Made by a program: the position numbers and the translations under genes. DNA of 64,000 nt from Pseudomonadota bacterium (GTDB taxonomy: Bacteria > Pseudomonadota > Gammaproteobacteria > Steroidobacterales > Steroidobacteraceae), in the NCBI GenBank assembly GCA_026398735.1, contig JAPLSH010000014.1, positions 145,697 through 209,696 of the forward strand, given 5' to 3'. Positions 14,876-56,989 of this stretch are shown one piece after another. Under the pieces are notes generated by a model, which did not search any database, was not told the DNA's origin, and worked only from the letters and a program-made list of their open reading frames with translations. The number at the start of each line of letters is the position of its first letter. The stretch's first letter is position 1.

Positions 14876-16528
14876 TCAGGCGTACGGTGCGGGGTGCAGA
14901 AAAGGCCAGGGGCTGGCGTCACTGCCGCGCTCACTCTGCACCACGATAACCGCGGGTACGTCGGCTGCAATCGATCGCTCTAATGCACCGCGCAGGCCGG
15001 CAGGCGAGCTGACACGCTCGGCGCGCGCGCCGAAGCTTTCGGCCAGCTTCACAAAGTCTGGGTTGCGCAGCTCTGCGCCGATAAAGCGGCTGTCATAGCG
15101 CTCAGTCTGGTCGCGGCGCACATTGCCGAAGCTGGCGTTGTCGAATACCACTGCGATGACATTGATGCCGTATTGCACCGCGGTAGCCAGTTCTTGCACG
15201 CCGAACATGAAACCGCCATCGCCATTGACCGAGATCACCACCTTGTCGGGGTTGGCCACTTTGACACCCAGCGCGGTGTTAAAGCCGAAGCCCAGATTGT
15301 CCTGATAGCCGCAGGTGACGTATTGGCGCGGGCCATAAACGGGGAAGGCCAAGCGCGCCGCAAAGCCAATTTGGGCAATTTCTTCGACAAAGAAGCCATC
15401 GCGGGGCAGTACGTCACGAATGGTTTGCAGGTAACTGACTTGCGGTTGCAGCGATTGCAGTGCTGCCAGATCGCGCTGTTTGCAGGCGTTCAGCGCCTCC
15501 AGGCGGGAGGTCTGGGCCGGCAGTAGGCCATCGAGCGACTGCAACAGGGCGCGCGTACCGAGCGCAGCATCTGTCACCAGTCCGACTGTGGGTTTGAGCC
15601 GCACCATTTCTGTCGGATCGATGTCGATGCGCAGGGTTTTTAGACCAGGGGGCATCCAGCGCCAGCGCATGTGCTGCAGCTCCAAGCGGCTGCCAATCCC
15701 GATCAGCAAATCGCAGTCTTGCCACCAGTCATAGGCCGCACCCATCGACAGGCCGTAGGGCAGGTGTTCCCCCACAATGCCTTTGCCGCTGCGATGCGCA
15801 GTCACTGGGGCCTGTAAGCGTTGCGCCAGTTCGAGTATTTCATCGCCCGCATGCACGGCACCTGCACCGACCATGATCAGCGGTTTGCGTGCCGCAGCAA
15901 TAAGCCGTGCAGCGGCTTGCACGCTGTCTGGATCGGGCAAAGGTGGGGGCACTGGAGCGAGCATCTCTACGGCTCGCACGGCGGCCCGTTGTCCGAACAC
16001 ATCCCAAGGTGTTTCCACGGCAACTGGGCGTACGCGACCGCTGCGCAGCTGTTGGAAGGCCTGTGCCATGACAGTGCCCGCTTCGCTGGGGTGGTTGATG
16101 CGTTCTGCCCACTTGGTCAGGCCGCGCAGCAACGCCAGCTGGTCAGACAGCTCATGCAGCTGGCCACGCCCCTGGCCGATCAGATGGGACATGATATTGC
16201 CCGTCAAACACAGCACCGGAGCGTTGGCCCCATAGGCAGTACACAAAGCCGCGCCGCTGTTGAGCACGCCAGGCCCGGGCACGACGGTGTAAGTGCCCAC
16301 GCGTCCGGTGGACTTGGCATAACCGAAGGCCATGTAGCCTGCGCCCTGCTCGTGTCGCGTTGTGACGAAACGCAGCGTATTGTTACGACGAGCTAAAGCA
16401 TCGTTGAGGTCGTACATGTGCGCGCCGGGAATGCCAAACACAGTGTCTACGCCATGCGCTATCAGCGCGTCGGCTATTACATCGCCTGTGGTGGGTGTCA
16501 TCCTCGGTTCTCCGGTCGTTACTGACAT
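14876..16528 (-). CDS. thiamine-pyrophosphate-dependent enzyme (acetolactate synthase / benzoylformate decarboxylase-like)
   Basis: GVDTVFGIPGAH N-terminal block and TPP motif NGDGGFMFGVQELATAVQYGINVIAVVFDNASFG. Alternative start at M10 (16501). Confidence 0.85.
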   Translation of the reverse strand: MSVTTGEPRMTPTTGDVIADALIAHGVDTVFGIPGAHMYDLNDALARRNNTLRFVTTRHEQGAGYMAFGYAKSTGRVGTYTVVPGPGVLNSGAALCTAYGANAPVLCLTGNIMSHLIGQGRGQLHELSDQLALLRGLTKWAERINHPSEAGTVMAQAFQQLRSGRVRPVAVETPWDVFGQRAAVRAVEMLAPVPPPLPDPDSVQAAARLIAAARKPLIMVGAGAVHAGDEILELAQRLQAPVTAHRSGKGIVGEHLPYGLSMGAAYDWWQDCDLLIGIGSRLELQHMRWRWMPPGLKTLRIDIDPTEMVRLKPTVGLVTDAALGTRALLQSLDGLLPAQTSRLEALNACKQRDLAALQSLQPQVSYLQTIRDVLPRDGFFVEEIAQIGFAARLAFPVYGPRQYVTCGYQDNLGFGFNTALGVKVANPDKVVISVNGDGGFMFGVQELATAVQYGINVIAVVFDNASFGNVRRDQTERYDSRFIGAELRNPDFVKLAESFGARAERVSSPAGLRGALERSIAADVPAVIVVQSERGSDASPWPFLHPAPYA

Positions 16529-16596: not shown

Positions 16597-17376
16597 ATGA
16601 CGACCAAGTCAGGGCATATCAGGGCGGTTGCAAGGGCATTAAATCTGCTCGATGCAATGAACGAACGCCAGCCCTGCAGTTTGGCCGAGTTGCACCATGC
16701 CACGGGCTTGCCCAAGCCCACGGTGTTTCGCATTTTGGCAACGCTTGAAGCCGAAGGCTATGTGCGCAGTGAAGGGGGCTTGGGCCAGTACCGACTCACT
16801 GCGCGTACCAGACGGTTGGGAGCCGCCTACAGCGAAAAGTCGATGGTTATTGATGTCGGGGCGGCTATCGCACTGACTGTCACCAAGGCCATCAAATGGC
16901 CGCTCGCTATTGGTGTGCTGGACGGAGATGCGATTGTGGTGCGCCACAGCACAATGCCGTACAGCCCGCTTGCGGTGCAGGCCACCACATTGGGACATCG
17001 CTTGGGTTTGCTGGATTCGGCGATGGGACAGGCTTACTTGGCATTTTGTGACGACAAAGAGCGGAGCATTTTGGTCGACATGCTGTGCACCGGTGCAGAC
17101 GCAGCAGGTCTGGAGCATGTGCAGCAGGCGTTGGAAAAGCTGCCCGCGGCGCGTGAGCGCGGCTATGGCTTGCGCCTGCCCAAAGCAGTGGGTGTCAGCG
17201 CTACTGTTGCGGTACCGATTTTGCGTGGGTCGCAGGTTCCTGCCGTGCTGAGCATGACCACGTTTGGTCGCGTGATGAACGACAGCATGCTTGCGACGCA
17301 TCTGCCGGTGTTGCGACAAACTGCAACGGATATCGCGTTGGCGCTGGCTGCGCGTGAGAGTCAATTGCCTGCTTGA
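16597..17376 (+). CDS. IclR family transcriptional regulator
   Basis: N-terminal wHTH (ALNLLDAMNE.., LAELHHATGLPKPTVFRILATLEAEGYV) plus an IclR effector domain. ATG 16597 hand-checked. Divergent from the TPP enzyme gene. Confidence 0.85.
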   Translation: MTTKSGHIRAVARALNLLDAMNERQPCSLAELHHATGLPKPTVFRILATLEAEGYVRSEGGLGQYRLTARTRRLGAAYSEKSMVIDVGAAIALTVTKAIKWPLAIGVLDGDAIVVRHSTMPYSPLAVQATTLGHRLGLLDSAMGQAYLAFCDDKERSILVDMLCTGADAAGLEHVQQALEKLPAARERGYGLRLPKAVGVSATVAVPILRGSQVPAVLSMTTFGRVMNDSMLATHLPVLRQTATDIALALAARESQLPA

Positions 17377-17396: not shown

Positions 17397-18722
17397 TCAA
17401 CGCGCGGTCCCCATTACACCCAATAGAGCCAATGACATCGCGCGCACACCGGTGCGCAGGGTGGGTTCTGCCACGGGTATGAATTGCGGCGAATGATTAG
17501 CAGGCACCTGTTCGCCCCCGGCGCGCGCTGCAGCCATGCGCTTTGGCTCATAGATGCCCAAACCGAAAAAGAACGACGGTACTCCCGCCGCTTGGAACTC
17601 TGTGTAGTCCTCACCGGCTGACCAAGCGCTGCTCAGTTGCACGGACTTATCACCGAAGGCCTGGTTAAACAGTGCTGCAGTGCGGGCGGTGAGTTGTGGA
17701 TCGTTCATCACAGAACGGGTCCCGACGCTGAAACTTACTTGCGGTGGCGGTGCGCCGGCCATTGCCGCGACCGCTTGCGCAGTACGGGTTACACCCTGCT
17801 GTAACCTCTCGTGTACCGCATCTGATTGGCTGCGCACGGTGCCACGCAGTGCCACTTGATCCGGGATGATGTTGCCGGCACTTCCGCCCTGAATTGCTCC
17901 GATACTCACGACGCCAAACGCCGCCGGATCTTTTTCGCGACTTACAACCGATTGCAGGTCTACAACAAAACGGCTGGCCATCATCACCGGATCGATGGTG
18001 GTGCTTGGGTCTGAGCCATGCCCGCCACGCCCTAGAAAGGTAACGTTGAGCGCCGACCCGTTGGATGTCATCGCTCCGGCCCGCCACAGGACCTCGTCAT
18101 AGGCGCCCGGCATGGTGTGCAAAGCAAAGCCGTAGTCTGGCTTTCCGAATCGCTCAAACAGACGGTCCGCTAGCATCGCCTTGGCGCCTGCCACACGCTC
18201 TTCTGCCGGCTGTGCGATGAACATCAGTGTGCCGCGCCAGTTGCTGCGCTGGGCCAGCATCGCGCGCGCCGTGCCAACCCAGATGCTCATATGCATGTCG
18301 TGCGCACAGGTGTGGGCGGTGAAAGTGTCTGCGCCGTTGTACTGTGTGCGCGTCCGGCTGGCGAAAGGCAGGTCGCTCTGCTCCTGCATTGGCAGGCCAT
18401 CGAGCTCTGTGCGCACCATCACCAGAGGGCCGCTGCCGTTACGCAGCACAGCCACAAGACCTGTGCCACCTACGCCTTGCGTGACTTCAAAGCCGGCAGA
18501 ACGCATTTGTGCTGCAAGCAGCGCAGCGGTGCGTGTCTCGGCGAACGCCAGCTCTGGGTGGGCATGAAGGTCTGCATATAAGGCCAATAAAGACCCTTGT
18601 TCTTTTGCGAGTGAGGCATCTACGCGCAGCAATGCTGCTTTCACATCCAGCTGTGCGCACCAGGCCGCAGGCTGTGCCAGCATGCTGAGGAGCACGGTGG
18701 CGCAGACTGCGATTGGCTTCAT
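17397..18722 (-). CDS. exported M20D-family amidohydrolase (hippurate hydrolase / N-acyl-amino-acid hydrolase-like)
   Basis: Signal peptide MKPIAVCATVLLSMLAQPAAWCAQ. Blocks HAHPELAFAE, VRTELDGLPM, HTCAHDMH. Start overlaps the RidA stop (ATGA). Confidence 0.85.
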   Translation of the reverse strand: MKPIAVCATVLLSMLAQPAAWCAQLDVKAALLRVDASLAKEQGSLLALYADLHAHPELAFAETRTAALLAAQMRSAGFEVTQGVGGTGLVAVLRNGSGPLVMVRTELDGLPMQEQSDLPFASRTRTQYNGADTFTAHTCAHDMHMSIWVGTARAMLAQRSNWRGTLMFIAQPAEERVAGAKAMLADRLFERFGKPDYGFALHTMPGAYDEVLWRAGAMTSNGSALNVTFLGRGGHGSDPSTTIDPVMMASRFVVDLQSVVSREKDPAAFGVVSIGAIQGGSAGNIIPDQVALRGTVRSQSDAVHERLQQGVTRTAQAVAAMAGAPPPQVSFSVGTRSVMNDPQLTARTAALFNQAFGDKSVQLSSAWSAGEDYTEFQAAGVPSFFFGLGIYEPKRMAAARAGGEQVPANHSPQFIPVAEPTLRTGVRAMSLALLGVMGTAR

Positions 18723-19192
18723 CGTGAGGCCTTCCGGGCAGCGATCACTTCGATTTCAACCAAGGCTCCGGCTCGTGCCAAGCCTGCCACCTGCACGGTG
18801 GCACGTACCGGACGATTGGGCTGGCTTGCGGTGCCGAAGAACTCCAAATAGCTCGCGTTCATTGCCGCGAAATCCATCTTGCCGCCCAACGCAGGATCGC
18901 CAAGCAGATAGACGCGCATCTGGATCACATCTGCCATATCCAAGCCCTGCGATTGCAGCACCTTTTTGATGGCTAGAAGCGTGCTAGTGGTCTGGGCGCG
19001 CGTGTTGCCGCTGATGTCATCGGGAAGCATGCCGGCGACATACAGCTGATCACCGACCCAAATGCTTGAGGAGAACGGTGCGCCGTCGGTTGCGTTGCGT
19101 TGTATAGCTAGTCCGTCGGCAAGGCTGGTGCCGGTTGCCAGTAACAAACAAACCGCAGTGATGCTGCGTAGTTGAAGCGAGAAGGTGCTCAT
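18719..19192 (-). CDS. RidA/YjgF family protein with an N-terminal signal peptide
   Basis: 157 aa versus about 125 aa for cytosolic RidA. Leader MSTFSLQLRSITAVCLLLATGTSLA. Core LYVAGMLP.., MRVYL.., ARATVQVAGLARAGALVEIEVIA. Confidence 0.8.
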   Translation of the reverse strand: MSTFSLQLRSITAVCLLLATGTSLADGLAIQRNATDGAPFSSSIWVGDQLYVAGMLPDDISGNTRAQTTSTLLAIKKVLQSQGLDMADVIQMRVYLLGDPALGGKMDFAAMNASYLEFFGTASQPNRPVRATVQVAGLARAGALVEIEVIAARKASR

Positions 19193-19769
19193 GGCTTTGT
19201 CGACTCGTTGTTAAGGTTGTACAGGTGTGCGATGACGTCTTGAATAGGAAAGTCAGTGGGCATTGCACGAGAAATCTCGGCCATGCCTAGTGCCCAAGCG
19301 TTGCCCGTAACAGCTGCGCCACGCAAGCCTTCACGATATTTGGCCCACGTTGCTGCCAGATACCAATCGTTGAGTCGGTGTAATGCCGGCGCATGCAACT
19401 CTGGGCGACCTTGCGCTTGGGCGCCATGGCATGCGGCGCAGTGTTGGTCCCACAGCTTGGCGCCATTGTTGGCGTCGCCAGCAGCAAGCCAGCGCACAGG
19501 GCGGGTTGGCGCAAAGCTGGCAACATGGAGTAGTGCAGCTGCACGCTGCGCTGGCGTGACGATTTCTCGCGCCACACTTTGCATTTCTTTGCCAGCTGGG
19601 TCGCGGTCAAACCCAGCGGTACCACAGGGGCTTGCAAAGCCACGTTACCTTGCAATTGGCTGCCGTGGCAGGTGCTGCAATGGGTTGGCTCAGTGCTGCG
19701 ATCCGCGCCGCAGGCTGCAACTGGCGCTAACAACACAGTCGTGACCCATACGGTTAAGGCAATTCTCAT
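19189..19769 (-). pseudogene. dihaem c-type cytochrome with an interrupted reading frame (frame change near 19585-19590)
   Basis: Frame from 19769: signal peptide plus CSTCHG, sensible up to ..LTATQLAKK. Frame from ATG 19584: second domain with CAACHG but no signal peptide. See findings. Confidence 0.6.
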
Positions 19770-21301
19770 AGGGCCTCCCGAAGCTGGAGACGGTTGAGCA
19801 CATCGTGGGCAGCCAGCACGGCAGATTCCTGCCAGCCTGGATGGGCAGTAATCTGATCGCCGATGAGATAGTGCCGGCCCACGGGCTCACGCAATACAGC
19901 CAAGGTATCGTGGTCCACATCGCGCGCAGTGCAGCCGAGTTGATGGTTCATGCGATACCACGCCACGCTGACACCGTTTTCTATATGGCTTGCATAGTCC
20001 GGGTGCACGGCAGTGCCTTGCGTTGTAGCAGCACTGATCCGCTCTGCTGCTGACATCACGTGAAAGCGGTCTGCAGCGTCTTGTTGCAGGTAATAGCCAC
20101 CGACCACGATGCCCTTGCGGCTGTGAAAGCCGTGCGATGGATATTGGATCTGACCGATATCCTGATCGGTCCAGCTGATACCGCCATAGATGCCCTCCTG
20201 TTCCCAGAAGCGCTCGCGCATCTGAAAGGCAATTTTGGCGAGCTTGCCTCGCGGGCGTGTTGCCAGTCGCGCTACCAGTGGTTGGGGAAGATTGGTGTCC
20301 AGACCCGCCAGCAAATGTGCCGGAATGCTGTTCAGGCAGTAATCGACGCGCTCTTGGTGGGTTTTTCCGTTCTGCGTCCACCGCACATCTACCGTGCGTT
20401 CGTTGCAGTGAATGGAAACCACCTGGGCTCCAAAGTCTATTCGGCCCTTGAGTTGGTGGGCGAATGCCAAGGGGATCCGGTCCATGCCGCCCACGGGCTG
20501 CAAGACGGAGGATTGTGCCTCGCCTTCGCCGAAGTGCATGTTGGTCTGCCAGTGTCCCGAGCGCAGCAAGGCGCTTGCGGGTGTGACGGGTTTGGCGACA
20601 CCGGCGTCAAACAAGCCGCCGCTGGCGTAGCCCGCGCGTGCTGGGGAGCCGCGATAACGGCCATCGCTTCCCAGATCACCAAATTGAGTGATGAAGTCGG
20701 CCAGCCGACTTCTGTCTGCGGCATCAAGTGGCGTATCGAGTGTGGCTTGGGGCAAGGAGCGCGTCAGCAGTTCGGTCATAAAACCGCGCGCATCGGCGTT
20801 GTATTCGCGTTGGCGCAAACGCAGGCTGCCCTGCGCAGCGTTGTATTGCGCCCATGCAGAAGGGTTGTAGTTGACGTGCGTTTCCAGCGCCACACCGAAT
20901 TGACGACAGTAGTCGAGCAGGCGTCGATGCGAGACTGGAATGCGTGAGGCACCCGCGTTGAAATACAGGTTGGGGTCCTTATCGAAACGACAGACTTGGC
21001 GGTTGCCAATCTCGTCTACGACGTCCCCATGACGCAGTGTCAGTACGCGCCCGCCGATGCGCTGTGATGCTTCAAGCAGGCGCACCTGATAGCCCGCGCG
21101 CTGCAGCTCATAGGCGCACACCAGCCCTGCAATGCCGGCTCCGAGCACAAGGACTTTGCGCGGGCCCCGCGGTGCTCCTAGGCGCAGCGCAGGGGCTGAC
21201 GCACTGTCTGGGAGCGCCTGCATTGCACCGGCTAGTTTAACCAGTGCTGCGCTTCCTCCGGCCGCAGCAGCCAGCTCCAGTAGTCGTCGCCGTGTAAGCA
21301 T
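19766..21301 (-). CDS. Tat-exported flavin amine oxidase family protein
   Basis: Twin-arginine leader MLTRRRLLELAAAAGGSAA. FAD fold VLVLGAGIAGLVCAYEL..VRLLEASQRIGGR. 511 aa. Confidence 0.85.
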   Translation of the reverse strand: MLTRRRLLELAAAAGGSAALVKLAGAMQALPDSASAPALRLGAPRGPRKVLVLGAGIAGLVCAYELQRAGYQVRLLEASQRIGGRVLTLRHGDVVDEIGNRQVCRFDKDPNLYFNAGASRIPVSHRRLLDYCRQFGVALETHVNYNPSAWAQYNAAQGSLRLRQREYNADARGFMTELLTRSLPQATLDTPLDAADRSRLADFITQFGDLGSDGRYRGSPARAGYASGGLFDAGVAKPVTPASALLRSGHWQTNMHFGEGEAQSSVLQPVGGMDRIPLAFAHQLKGRIDFGAQVVSIHCNERTVDVRWTQNGKTHQERVDYCLNSIPAHLLAGLDTNLPQPLVARLATRPRGKLAKIAFQMRERFWEQEGIYGGISWTDQDIGQIQYPSHGFHSRKGIVVGGYYLQQDAADRFHVMSAAERISAATTQGTAVHPDYASHIENGVSVAWYRMNHQLGCTARDVDHDTLAVLREPVGRHYLIGDQITAHPGWQESAVLAAHDVLNRLQLREAL

Positions 21302-21309
21302 GGGCCGGG

Positions 21310-22167
21310 CTACTTCACTAATTGCGAGGGTTGTGCGCTGGGCAGCTTAGCCATCTCTGCGGCGATGCAATGCACCTCGAAGATGTCGCGGTCATCGCGC
21401 AAGTTGTAGCGCTTGGTGTTCACCCAGTTGCCTTCCCAATATTGCGGATCGGTCATTGTCAGCTCAATGGCCAACACGGTGCCATCACTTTCCAAGGTCC
21501 AGCGCTCCACGATCTTGAGCTGTTCACCGACCGGAACGCCTGCCTGTATCCAGTGATGGTTTGGCTCAAAGTTGCGCGTTTCGACCACCAAGGACTTGCC
21601 CTCGAAGTGGCCAATAGAGTCGCCGTTGAATGACGGCAGCGTGAAGTCGGGATCCGGGTGCTTACGACCGTCGAGATAGATCCAGCGGACTTGGTTCTCA
21701 AAGCCCTGAATCATCACGATGGCAGTGGGCAGTTGTATGACCTGAATGGGCCAGACACGCGTTAGAAATCGCGGCATGCCTGGCGGGTAGCAGCTACCGG
21801 CATCATCTTTATAGGCTTTGCCGTCTTTATCAGCTTGTAGCTTTTCGTTGTAAATCGTCTGCGCGGCTGCGGTGAATTTTGGCAGCGGAAAGAATTCCCA
21901 ATCCGGCGGCGGGCCGTTGGTGGCTGTGCGCTGCATGAGCCATGTGCCCATGAAGTTCACTGTGGCTTTGGGGCGTTTGGCGTTGAGGTTGCCAGCGGCC
22001 AGCATGCTCCAGTTGCCTTTGGCGGGCGCTGCAGACAGCTTGACGGCAGGCTCTACCTTTCGAACCTGCGCAACCGCATCAGTGCAGTTCAGCACGGTGA
22101 GGGCAAGCAAGCCCACAGTCAGCAGCGCGGCTTTGTGTCGCAATGCGCCAAAGTTCAGAGCAAGCAT
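21310..22167 (-). CDS. exported protein of unknown function, first gene of the amine-oxidase operon
   Basis: Start taken at MLALNFGALRHKAALLTVGLLALTVLNC (ATG 22167, GGAGGGG 5 nt upstream). The track start 22476 would overlap the TBDR gene. Confidence 0.7.
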   Translation of the reverse strand: MLALNFGALRHKAALLTVGLLALTVLNCTDAVAQVRKVEPAVKLSAAPAKGNWSMLAAGNLNAKRPKATVNFMGTWLMQRTATNGPPPDWEFFPLPKFTAAAQTIYNEKLQADKDGKAYKDDAGSCYPPGMPRFLTRVWPIQVIQLPTAIVMIQGFENQVRWIYLDGRKHPDPDFTLPSFNGDSIGHFEGKSLVVETRNFEPNHHWIQAGVPVGEQLKIVERWTLESDGTVLAIELTMTDPQYWEGNWVNTKRYNLRDDRDIFEVHCIAAEMAKLPSAQPSQLVK

Positions 22168-22411
22168 AGTGTCCCCTCCAAGTTGACAGTGTGAAGTGAC
22201 TATAGAGCAGGCAATTTTACTGCTCTTGAGAGTGATGGACTTTTCTAAGCTCATTTCGACTGGCGGAACCATTCTGCTTGTGCGTCGGAAGTGGGTCGTT
22301 ATCCTTGGCCCACTAAGGCTACAAGTCGCGGCGTATCGGTAAGTCGACCGAATTCTACGCTGCCGTCGGTGTGACCTCTCAGAGCAATGGCAAGTAACGG
22401 AGACTATAAAA

Positions 22412-25294
22412 ATGACAATCCGCAACACCGCACTTAACCGCAGCATTGCGTTGGCAGTTGCTGCCGCGCTCGCCACTGCTGTTGCACAGGCTCAAACTGC
22501 CGATGCACTAGACGAAGTTGCAGTCACTGCCTCGCGCATCCAGCGCACAGGCTTTGAAGCGCCCACACCCACGACATACCTGGGTGCAGATGAAATTGAA
22601 AACCGCGCTGCGGTACGTATCAGTCAAGTGTTGTTTGAGTTGCCTGCTATGCGTCCTACCGCCACTGCAGTGCCGTTCTCGGCCTCAGCTGGTGGTAGCT
22701 ACGCCAACTTGCGCAATCTCAATCCGGGTTCGCCGACGCAGACCGCCACGCGCACGTTGGTGCTGGTTGATGGGCGTCGTGTCGTAGCCAGTACGACGAC
22801 AGGTTTGGTGGATCTCAACACCATTCCAACGGCACTTGTTGAGCGCGTCGAAGTGGTTACAGGTGGTGCATCGGCCGCCTGGGGTTCCGACGCAGTTGCT
22901 GGCGTTACCAACTTCCTGCTTAAGAAAAAGCTTGATGGGCTTGAGGCCAACGTGCAGTACGGCCAATCGGCTCACAATGATCAACGTGAGTCTTCATTCT
23001 CGTTGGCGTGGGGCAGTGGTTATGCCGGCGGTCGTGGCCAGTTCATGCTCGCTGCAGAAGGCAGCAAACTGACCGATCCGGTGACGGCCGGTGCGCGCAG
23101 TTGGGGTCGTAATCAGTACGGCTGGGTCAGCGGCGCCGTTGATGGCGTCACCTATACGCGTATCACGGTGCCTGGTGTGACGGCCTCGGGTGTTACTAAC
23201 GGTGGTGTCATCGTGGCATCCACTGGTGCACCGTTACCCACCACCGGTGCTACGGCGGCACTGCGTGGCATTCAGTTCGGCCCCGGTGGAGCGGTGCAGC
23301 CATTTACCTATGGCACCTATTTGAGCAACAACACGATGGTCGGGGGCAGTGGCGGGGTGTTTTCACCGCTGAACAATTTGACTGCGCCGGTGGACCGTCA
23401 GAGTGTGTTTGGGCGCACCACCTTCGATTTCACGGACAATGTTCGTGGCTTCGCAGAGCTCGCGTACGCCAATTCTTCCTCTACTGTAAACACCCAGCCT
23501 ACGTACACGCCCAACGGCGATCCGGTGTTTACCATCCGCAAGGACAATCCGTTCTTGCCGGCCTCTATTGTGTCGCTGATGACCGCCAATGCGCTGACCA
23601 CCTTCGGCCTCGGTCGGGCCAACCCCGAGTTCGGTCTTTACTCAATTGGCGAGTCGCAAGCCACGGTCAAGCGCGGTTCGGCAGGCTTAGACGGCGAAGT
23701 AAGCGGCTGGAAGTGGAAGGCTTGGGTCACCAGCGGCAGCACCGACTATTACGATCGAGTGCCCAACAACATCAAGCAGGCCAATCTGCGTGCAGCCGTT
23801 GATAGCGTGATGGGCCCGGGCGGTACGCCTATCTGCCGCATCAATAGCACGGCTGCGGCCGACATCGCCCTTGTGACGGCGACCACCTATCAGGGTCGCG
23901 GTGCCGATGCGGGCTGTGTTGCGGCCAATCCATTTGGACCCGGGTCGTTCACGTCACAGGTCGCCGGCTATGTGCTGGGTCTGAGTCAGGCTACGGCGAC
24001 CATTCGTCAGGACACTGGCGGTGCAACGATTCAAGGCGAGCCGTTTGCAATTTGGGCCGGCCCGGTGTCGTTGGCCGGTGGTATTGAATACCGCAAGGAG
24101 AGCGTCGATCAGGTTTCTGATGCGACCGCACAGACCTCTACACCGGCATTCCAAACCGGTGGTTGGCAGTTCGCCAACCGCAAGCCGCTCAATGGTCAGT
24201 ACGATGTGAAGGAATATTTCGCAGAGACGATTGTGCCGCTGGCCAAGGATCATGCGTTGTTCCAGGCGCTGGATTTCAACGCGGCGGTGCGTGCCACCGA
24301 CTACAGCACTAGCGGTAGCGTCACCAGCTGGAAGGCAGGTCTAACCTGGTCACCGTTTGAAGGGGTCTTGTTGCGCGGTACGCGCTCGCGCGATATCCGG
24401 GCGGCTAACTTGGTCGAGTTGTTTACGCCTGGCGTTTCGATAGTCGGCGCCATTGTCGATCACGGGCGCACGGGCAGCCCGACCTCTTCAGTGCCTACCA
24501 CCACCGTGGGTAATGCAGATCTCAAGCCAGAGCAGGCCGATACCCAAACCGTCGGCATCACTTGGCAACCCACGGGCACGGGCTTTCATGCATCTTTGGA
24601 CTGGTATCGCATCGACCTCAAGAACGCCATCGGCTCGTTTGGCGGTCAGAATATCGTCAGTGCCTGCTATGGCAAGGCACCGTTTACTGCAGTGGTTTCT
24701 GATGCCTGTGCACTGATCTCACGCGATACGGCGGGTGTTATTAGCAACGTCTTCAACAAGACGCTCAACTTGGCATTTACCAAGACCAACGGCACCGACG
24801 TTGAGCTGGGCTACAAGTTTGCCCTGGCCAGCCTGTCGGATGGCCTGGGTGGTGATATGCAGTTGCGCTTGTTGGGCACGTATCTGGACAAGCTCGACAC
24901 TAACAACGGCATTGTGACGGTGGATCGCGCCGGCGAGATCGGTAATTCGCGCTGGCGTTTGACGGCAACAGCCAATTACGTCAATGGCCGCTTCTCTGGC
25001 TATCTGCAGGGCCGATATTTTGACAGCGCCAAGGTCGACAACACGTTCAGTGCGACCGACATCTATGACAACAGCGTGCCTAGTGTGATTTATGCCAATG
25101 CCTCTGTGCAGTACGTATTTGGAAATGTCATGGGCAATGGTTCATTGCAGGGTTTCCTCAGCATCAACAACCTGTTCGACAAGGCGCCGCCATTGGTTAC
25201 TTCGGCCAGCGTATCTCCGAGTCAGGCGCCCTTGGCTCCCGACTACGACAAAGTGGGTCGTTACTTCACTTTGGGTTTGCGGTACCGCCGCTAA
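22412..25294 (+). CDS. TonB-dependent receptor
   Basis: Signal peptide; plug region DEVAVTASRIQRTGFEAPTP and TLVLVDGRRV; VERVEVVTGGASAAWGSDAVAGVTNF; long barrel; 960 aa. Confidence 0.9.
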   Translation: MTIRNTALNRSIALAVAAALATAVAQAQTADALDEVAVTASRIQRTGFEAPTPTTYLGADEIENRAAVRISQVLFELPAMRPTATAVPFSASAGGSYANLRNLNPGSPTQTATRTLVLVDGRRVVASTTTGLVDLNTIPTALVERVEVVTGGASAAWGSDAVAGVTNFLLKKKLDGLEANVQYGQSAHNDQRESSFSLAWGSGYAGGRGQFMLAAEGSKLTDPVTAGARSWGRNQYGWVSGAVDGVTYTRITVPGVTASGVTNGGVIVASTGAPLPTTGATAALRGIQFGPGGAVQPFTYGTYLSNNTMVGGSGGVFSPLNNLTAPVDRQSVFGRTTFDFTDNVRGFAELAYANSSSTVNTQPTYTPNGDPVFTIRKDNPFLPASIVSLMTANALTTFGLGRANPEFGLYSIGESQATVKRGSAGLDGEVSGWKWKAWVTSGSTDYYDRVPNNIKQANLRAAVDSVMGPGGTPICRINSTAAADIALVTATTYQGRGADAGCVAANPFGPGSFTSQVAGYVLGLSQATATIRQDTGGATIQGEPFAIWAGPVSLAGGIEYRKESVDQVSDATAQTSTPAFQTGGWQFANRKPLNGQYDVKEYFAETIVPLAKDHALFQALDFNAAVRATDYSTSGSVTSWKAGLTWSPFEGVLLRGTRSRDIRAANLVELFTPGVSIVGAIVDHGRTGSPTSSVPTTTVGNADLKPEQADTQTVGITWQPTGTGFHASLDWYRIDLKNAIGSFGGQNIVSACYGKAPFTAVVSDACALISRDTAGVISNVFNKTLNLAFTKTNGTDVELGYKFALASLSDGLGGDMQLRLLGTYLDKLDTNNGIVTVDRAGEIGNSRWRLTATANYVNGRFSGYLQGRYFDSAKVDNTFSATDIYDNSVPSVIYANASVQYVFGNVMGNGSLQGFLSINNLFDKAPPLVTSASVSPSQAPLAPDYDKVGRYFTLGLRYRR

Positions 25295-25312: not shown

Positions 25313-25696
25313 ATGAAGCATTTGAAGCAAAAGCTGCTGCTGTTAGCCCTTATGGCGAGTGTTGGGCCACTGGCTGTGGCCCATCATTCCTTCGCTGCCT
25401 TTGATTTGACACGCACGGTTACGGTGGAAGGCGAGCTGACGGAAGTGCATTTCACCAATCCGCACAGCTGGTTCGAGCTCAAAGTGATCGATGCCAAAGG
25501 TGCCGAGCAGCGTTGGGCAATTGAAGGGTTGAGTCCTCAGCAGCTAGTCAGTAAGGGGCTCAAGCGCACCGCTATGAAGGTGGGGGACAAGGTGACCATC
25601 ACCGTAAACCCACTTCGAGATGGCGCTGTGGGCGGCAGCTTGGTGGCAGTCAAGCTGGCTGATGGCACCGTGATTAACGGCGGCCCCGGGCAATAG
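25313..25696 (+). CDS. small exported protein, DUF6152-like (family assignment from memory)
   Basis: Signal peptide ending VAHHSFAAFD, then NPHSW and a single beta-rich domain. 18 nt after the TBDR stop. Confidence 0.65.
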   Translation: MKHLKQKLLLLALMASVGPLAVAHHSFAAFDLTRTVTVEGELTEVHFTNPHSWFELKVIDAKGAEQRWAIEGLSPQQLVSKGLKRTAMKVGDKVTITVNPLRDGAVGGSLVAVKLADGTVINGGPGQ

Positions 25697-41357: not shown

Positions 41358-41434
<77 letters not shown>

Positions 41435-56913: not shown

Positions 56914-56989
56914 GCCGGAGTAGCTCAGTTGGTAGAGCACGTCATTCGTAATGATGGGGTCGTAGGTTCGATTCCTATCTCCGGCACCA
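56914..56989 (+). tRNA. tRNA-Thr (anticodon CGT)
   Basis: Hand-folded: GCCGGAG/CTCCGGC acceptor, anticodon stem CGTCA/TGATG, loop TTCGTAA, T-arm GTAGG-TTCGATT-CCTAT, encoded CCA. 76 nt. Confidence 0.95.

Follow-up and report, generated by a model that had tools for sequence, protein, structure and literature searches.

The window, a 64,000-nt stretch of a Steroidobacteraceae contig, carries a five-gene minus-strand cluster, flanked on one side by an IclR-family regulator and a ThDP-dependent enzyme and on the other by a divergent TonB-dependent receptor and a DUF6152 gene (Table 1). The last four genes are chained by ATGA start/stop overlaps (19766-19769, 19189-19192 and 18719-18722), while an 8-nt spacer (21302-21309) separates the oxidase gene from the first gene, which is preceded by a strong Shine-Dalgarno sequence (GGAGGGG). 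The overlaps and the gap are exactly those given in the original prediction. Its count of five genes holds for the four intact ORFs, but the cytochrome c interval is not a single ORF.

Table 1. Features of the locus, in window positions.
Feature	Position	Strand	Description
ThDP-dependent enzyme	14876..16528	-	Cytoplasmic; NCBIfam PRK08266, 831 bits
IclR-family regulator	16597..17376	+	Convergent with operon; Pfam HTH_IclR and IclR_C
M20D amidohydrolase	17397..18722	-	441 aa; predicted Sec export; last operon gene
Rid-family imine deaminase, Rid3-like	18719..19192	-	157 aa; predicted Sec export
Dihaem class-I cytochrome c gene	19189..19769	-	581 nt; frame-broken in this assembly
Cytochrome 3' fragment ORF	19189..19584	-	Second haem domain, CAACH; Pfam Cytochrom_C, E 3.7e-9
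Cytochrome 5' fragment ORF	19287..19769	-	Signal peptide (possible lipobox VAAC); first haem motif, CSTCH
64-nt gap junction	19625..19626	-	From alignment to other assemblies
Tat flavoenzyme, LAAO clade	19766..21301	-	511 aa; Pfam Amino_oxidase
Protein without named family	21310..22167	-	Secreted; 285 aa from MLALNF start; operon gene 1
Divergent intergenic region, operon/receptor	22168..22411	.	244 nt
TonB-dependent outer-membrane receptor	22412..25294	+	960 aa; Pfam Plug and TonB_dep_Rec_b-barrel; divergent from operon
DUF6152 protein	25313..25696	+	127 aa; Pfam DUF6152, E 1e-31; signal peptide, predicted secreted

Export signals and flanking genes

All signal peptides were predicted by a heuristic scan for hydrophobicity, charge and a cleavage site. 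The 285-aa protein, the cytochrome, the Rid protein and the M20D enzyme gave h-region scores of 2.2-2.6 (first 13 residues). Cytoplasmic neighbours used as controls mostly scored 0.95-2.0; one of them, NMO, reached 2.33 with a hydrophobic stretch that begins at residue 20. The oxidase carries a twin-arginine leader (TRRRLLEL) whose R4 and R5 are at least 90% conserved among 26 homologues. Among orthologues adjoining an oxidase, 55 of 65 Rid proteins and 59 of 78 cytochromes also scored at least 2.0, and most of the others look signal-peptide-like by eye. N-terminal extensions of about 20-40 residues relative to solved homologues further back export. The earlier claim that all five genes bear export signals is thus upheld: the N-termini that it quoted are present, and both the scan and the orthologues agree with it.

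No Pfam or NCBIfam model matched the 285-aa protein, and its 431 homologues are all named "hypothetical". Across 32 sequences of this family, the signal peptide and two invariant cysteines are conserved. By searching with an AF2 model (pLDDT 81, pTM 0.76) in Foldseek, we found a weak match to a FABP/CRABP-like calycin barrel only (E 4e-4, target TM ~0.55). Elsewhere, in unrelated loci, members of the family sit beside a DUF6152 gene and in many cases a TonB-dependent receptor gene as well, and on these genomic associations we assign the protein to an uptake module. The neighbouring DUF6152 protein has a predicted mature N-terminus that starts with HHSF. The same receptor type lies beside the oxidase cluster in loci L001, L006 and L008, in 32 further loci the gene immediately upstream of the oxidase encodes a different, 870-aa receptor, and about 38 of 82 loci have a TonB-dependent receptor gene adjoining that of the oxidase. 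The intergenic region between operon and receptor, which has neither an Rfam family nor a consensus sigma-70 match, is presumably a shared promoter/regulatory region. On the other flank, the IclR regulator (start uncertain, 16495 or 16597; 259 aa as called in L001) is also found beside the cluster in L007, with 67% identity. The nearest named family of the ThDP enzyme is 5-guanidino-2-oxopentanoate decarboxylase, with a score below that family's cut-off. The enzyme also lies beside the cluster in L001, L006 and L008 (73-74% identity); to judge by its position, it may decarboxylate the 2-oxo acid that the pathway would yield.

The cytochrome c gene and its 64-nt gap

In intact relatives, the cytochrome gene measures 645 nt and encodes a 214-aa dihaem cytochrome c, whereas the length of the window's interval is not divisible by 3. 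The 5' fragment leaves the frame after QAP; the 3' fragment lies in another frame without a signal peptide of its own, and its stop overlaps the Rid start. As read, the window cannot produce an exported full-length cytochrome, which we count against the dehydrogenase reading set out below. The missing 64 nt are present in L001, L002 and L004 and appear as a single gap in the alignment to the window. The codons missing at the junction encode ALAGMDPWYLDEQLRAYNQLQR, and the junction microhomology is 1 nt. In L001, the gene translates intact, with a signal peptide and the motifs CSTCH and CASCH.

The operon might be decaying in this organism, with a real 64-nt deletion and a cytochrome c pseudogene. 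Indeed, the gap breaks the frame as read, and the aligned sequence showed no flanking repeat that would explain an assembly collapse. However, three independent contigs from three sequencing runs (L086, L087 and L088) carry the 64 nt and an intact cytochrome gene; their oxidase is identical to that of the window, and they agree with the window in its SNP alleles. Moreover, each of the other four operon genes is intact, with 99-100% identity to its counterpart in relatives. Over the 17.5 kb aligned to L001, the cytochrome gap alone divides the alignment; 8 further gap openings, together 29 nt, are confined to the half without the operon's other genes. We consider decay improbable. Judged from these alignments, the gap belongs to this assembly alone, as an artefact or as a rare variant, and is no property of the system.

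Substrate class and conserved core

The oxidase (Pfam Amino_oxidase, E 2e-39) has as its top solved relative the L-amino-acid oxidase of Rhodococcus opacus (RoLAAO, 2JAE; E 1.1e-77, residues 41-508, 37% identity). L-amino-acid oxidases (LAAOs) occupy the top 13 of the 60 PDB matches listed, and NicA2, to which the original prediction had likened the enzyme, is absent from these 60. R120 of the oxidase aligns with RoLAAO R84, which binds the substrate carboxylate (PMC10900486), K356 with the flavin-N5 lysine and W490 with W467; none of the three varies among 26 homologues. Because the oxidase falls in the LAAO clade and not in the NicA2 clade, its substrate is, as read from sequence, almost certainly an alpha-amino acid instead of the unspecified amine or N-acyl-amine first proposed.

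The Rid protein (Pfam Ribonuc_L-PSP, E 9e-21) is closest among solved structures to the Rid3 proteins PFL_1385 (E 8e-32) and PSPTO_3006 (E 9e-27), with RidA-type chains at ~1e-11. What had been called a secreted RidA is therefore a predicted exported Rid-family protein, but by its PDB matches Rid3-like and not RidA proper. It retains the catalytic arginine (PVRATVQV aligns with PARTTVQV). In vitro, PFL_1385 and PSPTO_3006 deaminate LAAO-made imino acids derived from Leu, Gln, Phe, Met and His (PMC5619798), and clustering of Rid3 genes with amine oxidases has been reported earlier (PMC4433059).

The M20D enzyme scores 225 bits against NCBIfam TIGR01891 amidohydrolase (cut-off 153.75). Its top PDB match is the N-alpha-acyl-glutamine aminoacylase 6SLF (E 1.5e-59), with which the motifs HTCAHDMH and QPAEE align, followed by YxeP and ILL2. 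To our knowledge, every characterised M20D relative among these matches releases a free L-alpha-amino acid. The overlap of its start with the Rid stop and its retention in L005 and L006 argue for a step in the same pathway. However, its coupling to the oxidase is tentative because the gene is found in L001-L006 only; L007, L008 and every more distant locus lack it.

By comparing 80 GTDB species-level loci (oxidase identity 41-65%), we found the oxidase together with a dihaem cytochrome c in 74 of them, in several orders, and with both a cytochrome c and a secreted Rid in 61; the order oxidase-cytochrome-Rid occurs in 47. On the heuristic scan, export signals are conserved across loci on the oxidase (RR), the cytochrome and the Rid protein. 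The three genes are separable, since oxidase-Rid pairs without cytochrome exist in Caulobacterales and oxidase-cytochrome pairs without Rid in Vicinamibacterales. By this synteny, oxidase, cytochrome c and Rid form the conserved core, and the M20D enzyme and the 285-aa protein are lineage-specific additions outside it, restricted to the closest relatives. Of the four-gene co-occurrence suggested as a check on the original prediction, the first three genes are borne out and the M20D gene is not. Its more general view, of a Tat flavoenzyme that would cooperate with a c-type cytochrome and a Rid protein in a periplasmic unit that looks co-transcribed, agrees with the synteny.

Proposed function and comparison with known systems

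Based on sequence and on analogy with characterised relatives, we propose, with a probability of roughly 55%, that the operon encodes a periplasmic L-amino-acid dehydrogenase system; the most likely role of the cluster is the extracytoplasmic removal of nitrogen and electrons from amino acids. The receptor, the DUF6152 protein and the calycin-like accessory protein would import an amino-acid-containing substrate across the outer membrane, and the secreted M20D enzyme could remove an N-acyl or peptide block, freeing the alpha-amino group of an L-amino acid. The flavoenzyme, by its family and active-site residues, would oxidise the L-amino acid to a 2-imino acid. Given the strongly conserved synteny and the behaviour of other Tat flavin amine oxidoreductases, its reduced FAD would be re-oxidised in two one-electron steps by the co-encoded dihaem cytochrome c and not by O2, so that electrons would reach the respiratory chain without formation of H2O2. 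By analogy with its closest solved relatives in vitro, the secreted Rid3 would accelerate conversion of the imino acid to a 2-oxo acid and ammonium. In this lineage, the M20D enzyme and the receptor module may fit this core to a particular class of substrates.

The dehydrogenase reading fits a rule described in 2025: among Tat flavin amine oxidoreductases, an adjacent CytC gene is the stronger predictor of dehydrogenase behaviour, with CytC rate constants of 1e4-1e6 M-1 s-1 (PMC12224317). The same study also supports a different view, in which the flavoenzyme is an ordinary exported LAAO that uses O2 and produces H2O2 for nitrogen scavenging or antagonism, the cytochrome having another role, or no direct one, in flavin re-oxidation. 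Tat-only enzymes react fast with O2, and clade 1, whose members were the only ones tested with ~20-kDa dihaem c4-type cytochromes, gave modest rates in vitro (290-2700 M-1 s-1; PMC12224317). In addition, RoLAAO, the closest characterised homologue, is a true Tat-exported O2-using oxidase (PMC10900486, PMC5053998), and the oxidase-Rid pairs dispense with the cytochrome. However, 74 of 80 loci have the dihaem cytochrome c gene next to that of the oxidase, in most cases with the Rid gene on its other side, and in the window the oxidase stop overlaps the cytochrome start. In Pfam and NCBIfam, the cytochrome hits no models other than those of class-I cytochrome c, its PDB matches are electron-transfer cytochromes, none named a peroxidase, and cytochrome-maturation mutants of Gluconacetobacter diazotrophicus lose the LAAO-dependent phenotype (PMC5053998). 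An O2-using oxidase is therefore unlikely, although the most probable of the alternatives.

We give little credence to a cluster producing signalling or auxin-type 2-oxo acids, such as indole-3-pyruvate from Trp, in which the M20D enzyme would hydrolyse IAA-amino-acid conjugates and the ThDP enzyme would decarboxylate the 2-oxo acid. Loss of indole-3-pyruvate and IAA is the sole known genetic phenotype of a lao-cccA-ridA cluster (PMC5053998), M20D matches plant ILL2 (E 3e-41), and the ThDP enzyme recurs at the flank of three other loci. Nevertheless, the top M20D matches are aminoacylases and not ILR1-type, and the ThDP enzyme, whose nearest families are PRK08266 and AruI-like ones, is cytoplasmic, with no transporter linking the compartments. 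The spread of the cluster in aquatic and sediment Gammaproteobacteria, often adjoining TonB-dependent receptors, suggests nutrient acquisition instead. Finally, a non-amino-acid amine or alkaloid substrate, as in the NicA2/Pnao model, has in its favour that the window operon, like NicA2/CycN, places a cytochrome c gene next to that of a Tat flavoenzyme (PMC12224317). The PDB ranking and the invariant carboxylate-binding arginine make it very improbable, as do Rid3 and M20D, which both indicate alpha-amino and alpha-imino acids.

Several known systems resemble parts of the operon. RoLAAO aligns over its full length and shares a Tat-type signal peptide, the carboxylate-binding arginine, the flavin-N5 lysine and the W467 equivalent. 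It is a secreted, O2-using, Gram-positive enzyme with no reported cytochrome or Rid partner, and the window oxidase differs from it at the positions aligned to D227 and W426. The residue opposite W426 is a Thr, in a part of the alignment that borders an indel, and counts against the dehydrogenase reading. PFL_1385 and PSPTO_3006 (PDB 9BKC and 9BKA) are matched by the window Rid in the catalytic arginine and, for PFL_1385, through the N-terminal hydrophobic leader. A Phe in the window protein takes the place of the Ile typical of Rid3 and of the Tyr of RidA. The genomic partners and cellular location of PFL_1385 and PSPTO_3006 are not addressed in PMC5619798. The M20D aminoacylases (6SLF of Corynebacterium, YxeP, HipO-type hippurate hydrolases and ILR1/ILL2) share the TIGR01891 family and aligned metal-site motifs, whereas the window enzyme has a predicted Sec signal peptide and resides in an LAAO operon.

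The LAO1 complex of Chlamydomonas reinhardtii also combines an extracytoplasmic LAAO with a Rid-like subunit and yields ammonium from external amino acids; as far as the cited passages describe it, it is eukaryotic and O2-dependent, without cytochrome, amidohydrolase or receptor (PMC5053998, PMC10805672). The NicA2/Pnao-CycN-type dehydrogenases likewise pair a Tat-exported flavin amine oxidoreductase with an adjacent Sec-exported cytochrome c gene, and no Rid partner is mentioned in that work (PMC9396064, PMC12224317). By contrast, the window enzyme lies in the LAAO clade, with alpha-amino acids as predicted substrate class, and its cytochrome is a ~20-kDa dihaem and not an 11-kDa monohaem protein.

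The original prediction knew of no characterised pathway with this gene combination; its core, lao-cccA-ridA, had been described genetically in G. diazotrophicus in 2016 (PMC5053998). There, the three genes are co-expressed, a lao::Tn5 mutant no longer converts Trp to indole-3-pyruvate and IAA, ccm (cytochrome maturation) mutants show a 95% decrease in IAA, and the authors proposed a periplasmic location and cooperation of the three proteins (PMC5053998). By its published description, the PAL5 cluster (GDI2456-2454) has a Tat-signal LAAO-clade flavoenzyme (GDI2456, 34% identical to RoLAAO versus 37% for the window oxidase) followed by cytochrome c and Rid genes in one transcription unit, with auxin production as its phenotype. 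The window adds an upstream secreted calycin-like protein, a downstream secreted M20D enzyme and a divergent TonB-dependent receptor with a DUF6152 gene. On gene content, the window operon is a lineage-specific extension of this known cluster.

Gene arrangement and the interrupted cytochrome c gene

The oxidase, cytochrome c and Rid genes of the operon are contiguous and co-oriented, in that order, and their stop and start codons overlap, the oxidase stop and the cytochrome start sharing an ATGA. The ATGA overlaps at 19766-19769, 19189-19192 and 18719-18722, together with the 8-nt gap at 21302-21309, are exactly as first described. By using consensus scans, we found no internal promoters or terminators splitting the operon above shuffle expectation, and no Rfam family matched in the 244-nt divergent region where a riboswitch was looked for. 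The layout seen in the original prediction is real, except for the reading frame of the cytochrome, which is broken.

Positions of the operon genes, their neighbours and related gene pairs
Feature	Positions	Strand	Remarks
285-aa protein	21310-22167	minus	clean ORF, length counted from the MLALNF start
Oxidase, 511 aa	19766-21301	minus	clean ORF
Cytochrome c interval, 581 nt	19189-19769	minus	broken ORF, length not divisible by 3
Rid, 157 aa	18719-19192	minus	clean ORF
M20D, 441 aa	17397-18722	minus	clean ORF
ThDP-dependent enzyme	14876-16528	minus	flanks the operon
IclR regulator	16597-17376	plus	flanks the operon
285-aa/DUF6152 pair, window	21310-22167, 25313-25696
285-aa/DUF6152 pair, contig L089	6001-7032
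285-aa/DUF6152 pair, contig L090	5530-6804
285-aa/DUF6152 pair, contig L091	4777-7262
M1-family aminopeptidase, 831 aa	28944-31439	plus	secreted
PQQ-dependent quinohaemoprotein, 714 aa	9282-11426	minus	alcohol-dehydrogenase type
Secreted protein, 258 aa	13355-14131	plus	weak C-terminal PEP-CTERM sorting signal
ORF, 634 aa	32009-33913	minus	start codon uncertain
ORF, 961 aa	47755-50640		isoleucyl-tRNA synthetase
tRNA gene	41361-41434	minus
tRNA gene	56914-56986	plus
Oxidase-Rid pair, contig L092	6425-8510		no cytochrome c
Oxidase-Rid pair, contig L093	1675-3825		no cytochrome c

The cytochrome had been read as a single gene; in the window, however, the quoted leader and the downstream ATGA are in different frames. 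The signal peptide and the first haem motif (CSTCH) are encoded in ORF 19287-19769, and the Pfam cytochrome c domain with the second motif (CAACH) in ORF 19189-19584, in another frame, so that frame arithmetic and alignments exclude a continuous ORF. Metagenome contigs that match the window over 17.5 kb at 97.6-98.9% identity have, at the same place, a gene of 645 nt; its product, 214 aa long in the related locus L001, combines a signal peptide with two haem motifs. When aligned with them, the window shows a single clean gap of 64 nt, which follows ...CAAGCCCCT at about 19625/19626; the codons lost encode ALAGMEPWYLDEQLRAYNQLQR and the frame is shifted.

One reading of this gap is a true strain feature. 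Three contigs from three sequencing runs (SRR20698643, SRR20698653 and ERR15302218) encode exactly the oxidase of the window, and all three hold the 64 nt while also carrying the SNP alleles of the window around the site; one of them, L087, translates in frame through both haem motifs. Since contigs with the same alleles contain the missing bases, the gap is specific to this assembly, and we judge a real deletion in the strain unlikely; the gap is either an assembly artefact or a minor variant. In what follows, the organism is taken to have an unbroken gene for a dihaem cytochrome c, even though the window sequence as given cannot make it: the signal peptide and two CxxCH motifs fall within one polypeptide in L001 and in the reconstruction based on L087, and in two frames in the window. 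For annotators of the record (the MAG proteins are MCX7036465, MCX7036468 and MCX7036469), this matters in that a MAG consensus may break a gene which is intact in the underlying population. Taken as intact, the protein is a dihaem class-I cytochrome with weak similarity to PDB entries, among them CcoP (2e-6), the c4-type 1H1O (c-552; 2e-4) and, from flavocytochrome c sulfide dehydrogenase, the dihaem subunit.

Identity and predicted export of the enzymes

The oxidase matches Pfam Amino_oxidase (E 2e-39, residues 57-498) and has the GxGxxG motif of the FAD-binding fold, VLVLGAGIAGL, at residues 50-60. Its best solved relative is the L-amino-acid oxidase (LAAO) of Rhodococcus opacus, RoLAAO (2JAE, E 1.1e-77, residues 41-508, 37% identity). 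In all, 13 LAAO entries head its PDB matches, vertebrate and snake-venom LAAOs and L-glutamate oxidases coming after 2JAE, and NicA2 is absent among the 60 matches listed; on this ranking we dropped a NicA2-type assignment. By alignment, R120 corresponds to RoLAAO R84, which holds the substrate alpha-carboxylate (PMC10900486), K356 to the flavin-N5 lysine and W490 to W467, and all three are invariant in 26 homologues. RoLAAO A466 aligns with the invariant G489 and Y371 with Y404, the neighbouring Y403 being the invariant one, and W426 aligns with T458 where the alignment borders an indel. As judged from its sequence, the oxidase is an alpha-amino-acid enzyme of the LAAO clade and not a generic amine oxidase.

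The Rid protein had been labelled RidA and is instead Rid3-like. Its E-values are far better against the Rid3 proteins PFL_1385 (8e-32) and PSPTO_3006 (9e-27) than against the RidA-type 2DYY (1e-11) and 1J7H (6e-10), and with 53.5 bits it stays under the cut-off of 106 set for TIGR00004, the RidA model of NCBIfam. The catalytic arginine equivalent to RidA R105, a criterion for the imine-deaminase Rid subfamilies (PMC4433059), is kept, PVRATVQV aligning with PARTTVQV of PFL_1385. Both PFL_1385 and PSPTO_3006 hydrolyse the imino acids that LAAO generates from Leu, Gln, Phe, Met and His, as well as iminoarginine (PMC5619798). A word-based homologue search directed at the Rid3 loci of Pseudomonas (PFL_1385) gave 62 matches, none of them from Pseudomonas.

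The M20D protein scores 225 bits with TIGR01891 (cut-off 153.75), contains Pfam Peptidase_M20 and M20_dimer, and is closest to the N-alpha-acyl-glutamine aminoacylase 6SLF (E 1.5e-59), followed by YxeP and ILL2. Its HTCAHDMH and QPAEE, which we take to be the metal-binding and catalytic motifs of M20D, align with HACGHDLH and QPGEE of 6SLF (HxCxHDxH and QPxEE). Every characterised M20D relative among the matches listed releases a free L-alpha-amino acid.

Export was judged with a heuristic scan (hydrophobic core, positive n-region and small-residue cleavage site). The 285-aa protein, the cytochrome, Rid, M20D, the divergent TonB-dependent receptor and DUF6152 have h-region scores of 2.2-2.8 within their first 13 residues; most cytoplasmic neighbours score 0.95-2.0, and the control NMO reaches 2.33 with a hydrophobic stretch that begins at residue 20. 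The oxidase leader reads TRRRLLEL and continues into an Ala-rich h-region, with the two arginines R4 and R5 at least 90% conserved in 26 homologues. Orthologues strengthen the case: among those adjoining the oxidase in other loci, h was at or above 2.0 for 55 of 65 Rid genes and for 59 of 78 cytochrome genes, and most sub-threshold orthologues resemble signal peptides by eye, for example MKSLTKLALLSLCVASGSLMA ahead of EVKRYP. Moreover, the oxidase, Rid and M20D all carry N-terminal extensions of about 20-40 residues compared to solved homologues. Scan scores, conserved arginines, orthologue leaders and extensions together uphold, at the level of heuristics, the proposal that the whole operon is exported.

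Conservation of the core and its extensions

By scanning one genome per GTDB species with the oxidase alignment as query, we recovered 80 loci (41-65% identity) from Steroidobacteraceae, Rheinheimera, Pseudohongiella, Haliea, Woeseiaceae, Azotimanducaceae, other Pseudomonadales and Vicinamibacterales. Counting neighbours by tblastn with the proteins of the window, we found that a dihaem cytochrome c adjoins the oxidase in 74/80 loci and that cytochrome and Rid occur together in 61/80; oxidase, cytochrome c and Rid form the conserved core. The order oxidase-cytochrome-Rid is seen in 47 loci; 8 others have oxidase-Rid-cytochrome, and in 6 the cytochrome and Rid genes form a divergent pair. The 19 loci lacking Rid include 11 from Acidobacteria and 3 on truncated contigs. 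Cultivable carriers of the core include Rheinheimera pacifica, R. hassiensis and Haliea sp. E17 (loci L026, L030 and L081). M20D, present only in L001-L006, and the 285-aa protein, present only in L001-L005, L007 and L008, are not part of this conserved unit, contrary to what had been supposed.

Unbiased clustering of all neighbouring ORFs showed that a TonB-dependent receptor adjoins in about 38/82 loci; in 32 of these, it is of the 870-aa type and sits directly upstream, in most cases with the same orientation. In 18 loci there is a CadC-like regulator, which may be dedicated to the core cluster. This protein of about 700 aa (winged-helix DNA-binding and TPR-like) is divergently upstream of the oxidase in Pseudohongiella-type and related loci (L050, L053, L058, L062, L066, L070-L072, L074-L077 and L081-L083 are included). 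In Caulobacterales, the oxidase and Rid form a pair without the cytochrome. Asticcacaulis and one further contig have this different module variant; downstream of it come a D-Ala-D-Ala-ligase-like gene, DUF4259 and the methionine synthase gene metH.

No Pfam or NCBIfam family matches the 285-aa protein, and its 431 homologues are all named hypothetical. Its AF2 model (pLDDT 81) suggests a weak resemblance to FABP/CRABP calycin barrels, for which we claim no ligand. Membership in the catabolic core was rejected: the protein is missing from most oxidase loci, and its distant homologues adjoin DUF6152 in 3/3 loci examined, in unrelated contexts and each time with a TonB-dependent receptor. Because of this pairing, we assign it to the uptake module formed with the divergent receptor and DUF6152. 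One context of the pair is zinc-uptake-like (Zip, FUR, ZrgA and DUF3299) and another contains TauD and a luciferase-like gene; mature DUF6152 starts with HHSF, and in the 285-aa family Cys residues are invariant and His residues nearly so. The two proteins may assist receptor-mediated uptake as a periplasmic accessory system that is as yet uncharacterised. The 961-aa ORF, considered as a paralogous receptor, turned out to be a tRNA synthetase.

The ThDP-dependent enzyme flanking the operon belongs to the PRK08266 family, the nearest named family being 5-guanidino-2-oxopentanoate decarboxylase. L006 and L008 retain it next to the cluster, and it may act as a cytoplasmic 2-oxo-acid decarboxylase for the product. 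The M1 aminopeptidase, which has (AGA)n low-complexity sequence right after its signal peptide, is located about 3.6 kb past the receptor gene and its DUF6152 partner; free amino acids for the periplasmic oxidase could come from its activity. The 634-aa ORF, whose sole Pfam match is the M20 dimerisation domain, may encode a second, divergent M20-type peptidase. With its lipoprotein-like signal (LAGC) and a cytochrome c550/PedF-like domain at the C-terminus, the quinohaemoprotein is a second c-type-cytochrome-linked periplasmic dehydrogenase in the window; the PEP-CTERM signal of the 258-aa protein implies an exosortase system in the organism. Apart from the two tRNA genes, nothing in the window matched Rfam, and the remainder of its 3' half is housekeeping (Obg, MurJ, RibF and IleRS).

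Proposed pathway and relation to known systems

The outline of a periplasmic pathway, originally drawn for an amine or N-acyl-amine, stands once re-centred on L-amino acids, Rid3 and a published three-gene core. In the reading with the best support, the receptor would import an amino-acid-containing compound, whose alpha-amine the secreted M20D would presumably unmask. The Tat-exported LAAO-class enzyme would then pass a hydride from the L-amino acid to its FAD, the dihaem cytochrome c would re-oxidise FADH2 in two one-electron steps, and Rid3 would speed the conversion of the released 2-imino acid to 2-oxo acid and ammonium. Family membership, conserved residues of the active site, export signals and gene order are what the analysis shows directly; the substrate, the feeding step by M20D, the electron path in this clade and the roles of the IclR regulator and of the ThDP-dependent enzyme are what we infer here. 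More broadly, LAAO-class flavoenzymes of Gram-negative bacteria could be, rather than oxidases, respiratory periplasmic L-amino-acid:cytochrome-c dehydrogenases acting with a dedicated, secreted Rid3 as imine hydrolase, often fed by TonB-dependent receptors, and could form a widespread route to ammonium and electrons, a reading to which we give roughly one chance in three.

If it holds, aquatic and soil Gammaproteobacteria as well as Acidobacteria would obtain ammonium as well as electrons for respiration from dissolved organic nitrogen while leaving the amino acids outside the cytoplasm, a periplasmic and energy-conserving use of amino-acid nitrogen that avoids H2O2, and secreted Rid3 proteins would gain a physiological job. 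The frequent receptor link would tie LAAO chemistry to the uptake of dissolved organic nitrogen. In this lineage, the secreted M20D would extend the route to N-acylated amino acids or blocked peptides, and the version with M20D is a concrete starting point in the search for the natural substrate.

The alternative to cytochrome-linked turnover is an ordinary oxidase, as RoLAAO itself is. Two features of NicA2-type dehydrogenases, a Tat leader (by heuristics) and an adjacent cytochrome c gene (intact in the same-allele contigs), are present here. For Tat flavin amine oxidoreductases, such a neighbouring gene is predictive of a dehydrogenase; O2 reactivity is not predictable from sequence (PMC12224317). 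That survey, which has since generalised the NicA2/CycN concept, took BLAST hits of NicA2 as its starting set, and neither LAAOs nor Rid proteins are mentioned in it; the only enzymes of the superfamily assayed with dihaem cytochrome partners of about 20 kDa reacted modestly in vitro (PMC12224317). We found no paper testing an LAAO-clade enzyme with cytochrome c in the literature searched. Were the cytochrome the real acceptor, the revision of the flavin amine oxidoreductase superfamily from oxidase to dehydrogenase would reach the LAAO clade.

The three-gene core of the combination has already been described genetically in Gluconacetobacter diazotrophicus PAL5 (PMC5053998), and a 2015 paper noted that genes for RidA and Rid3 cluster with those of FAD amine oxidases (PMC4433059). 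New here are how broadly Tat-LAAO, dihaem cytochrome and secreted Rid3 are conserved together, how often a TonB-dependent receptor accompanies them, and the lineage-specific extension by M20D and the uptake module. In G. diazotrophicus, lao, cccA and ridA (GDI2456-GDI2454) are co-expressed, the LAAO has a Tat signal of 38 residues, Tn5 insertions in lao leave Trp unconverted to indole-3-pyruvate and IAA, mutants in cytochrome maturation have 95% less IAA, and periplasmic cooperation of the three products was already proposed (PMC5053998). Likened by gene order and description, lao-cccA-ridA and the core of the window have the same three-gene arrangement.
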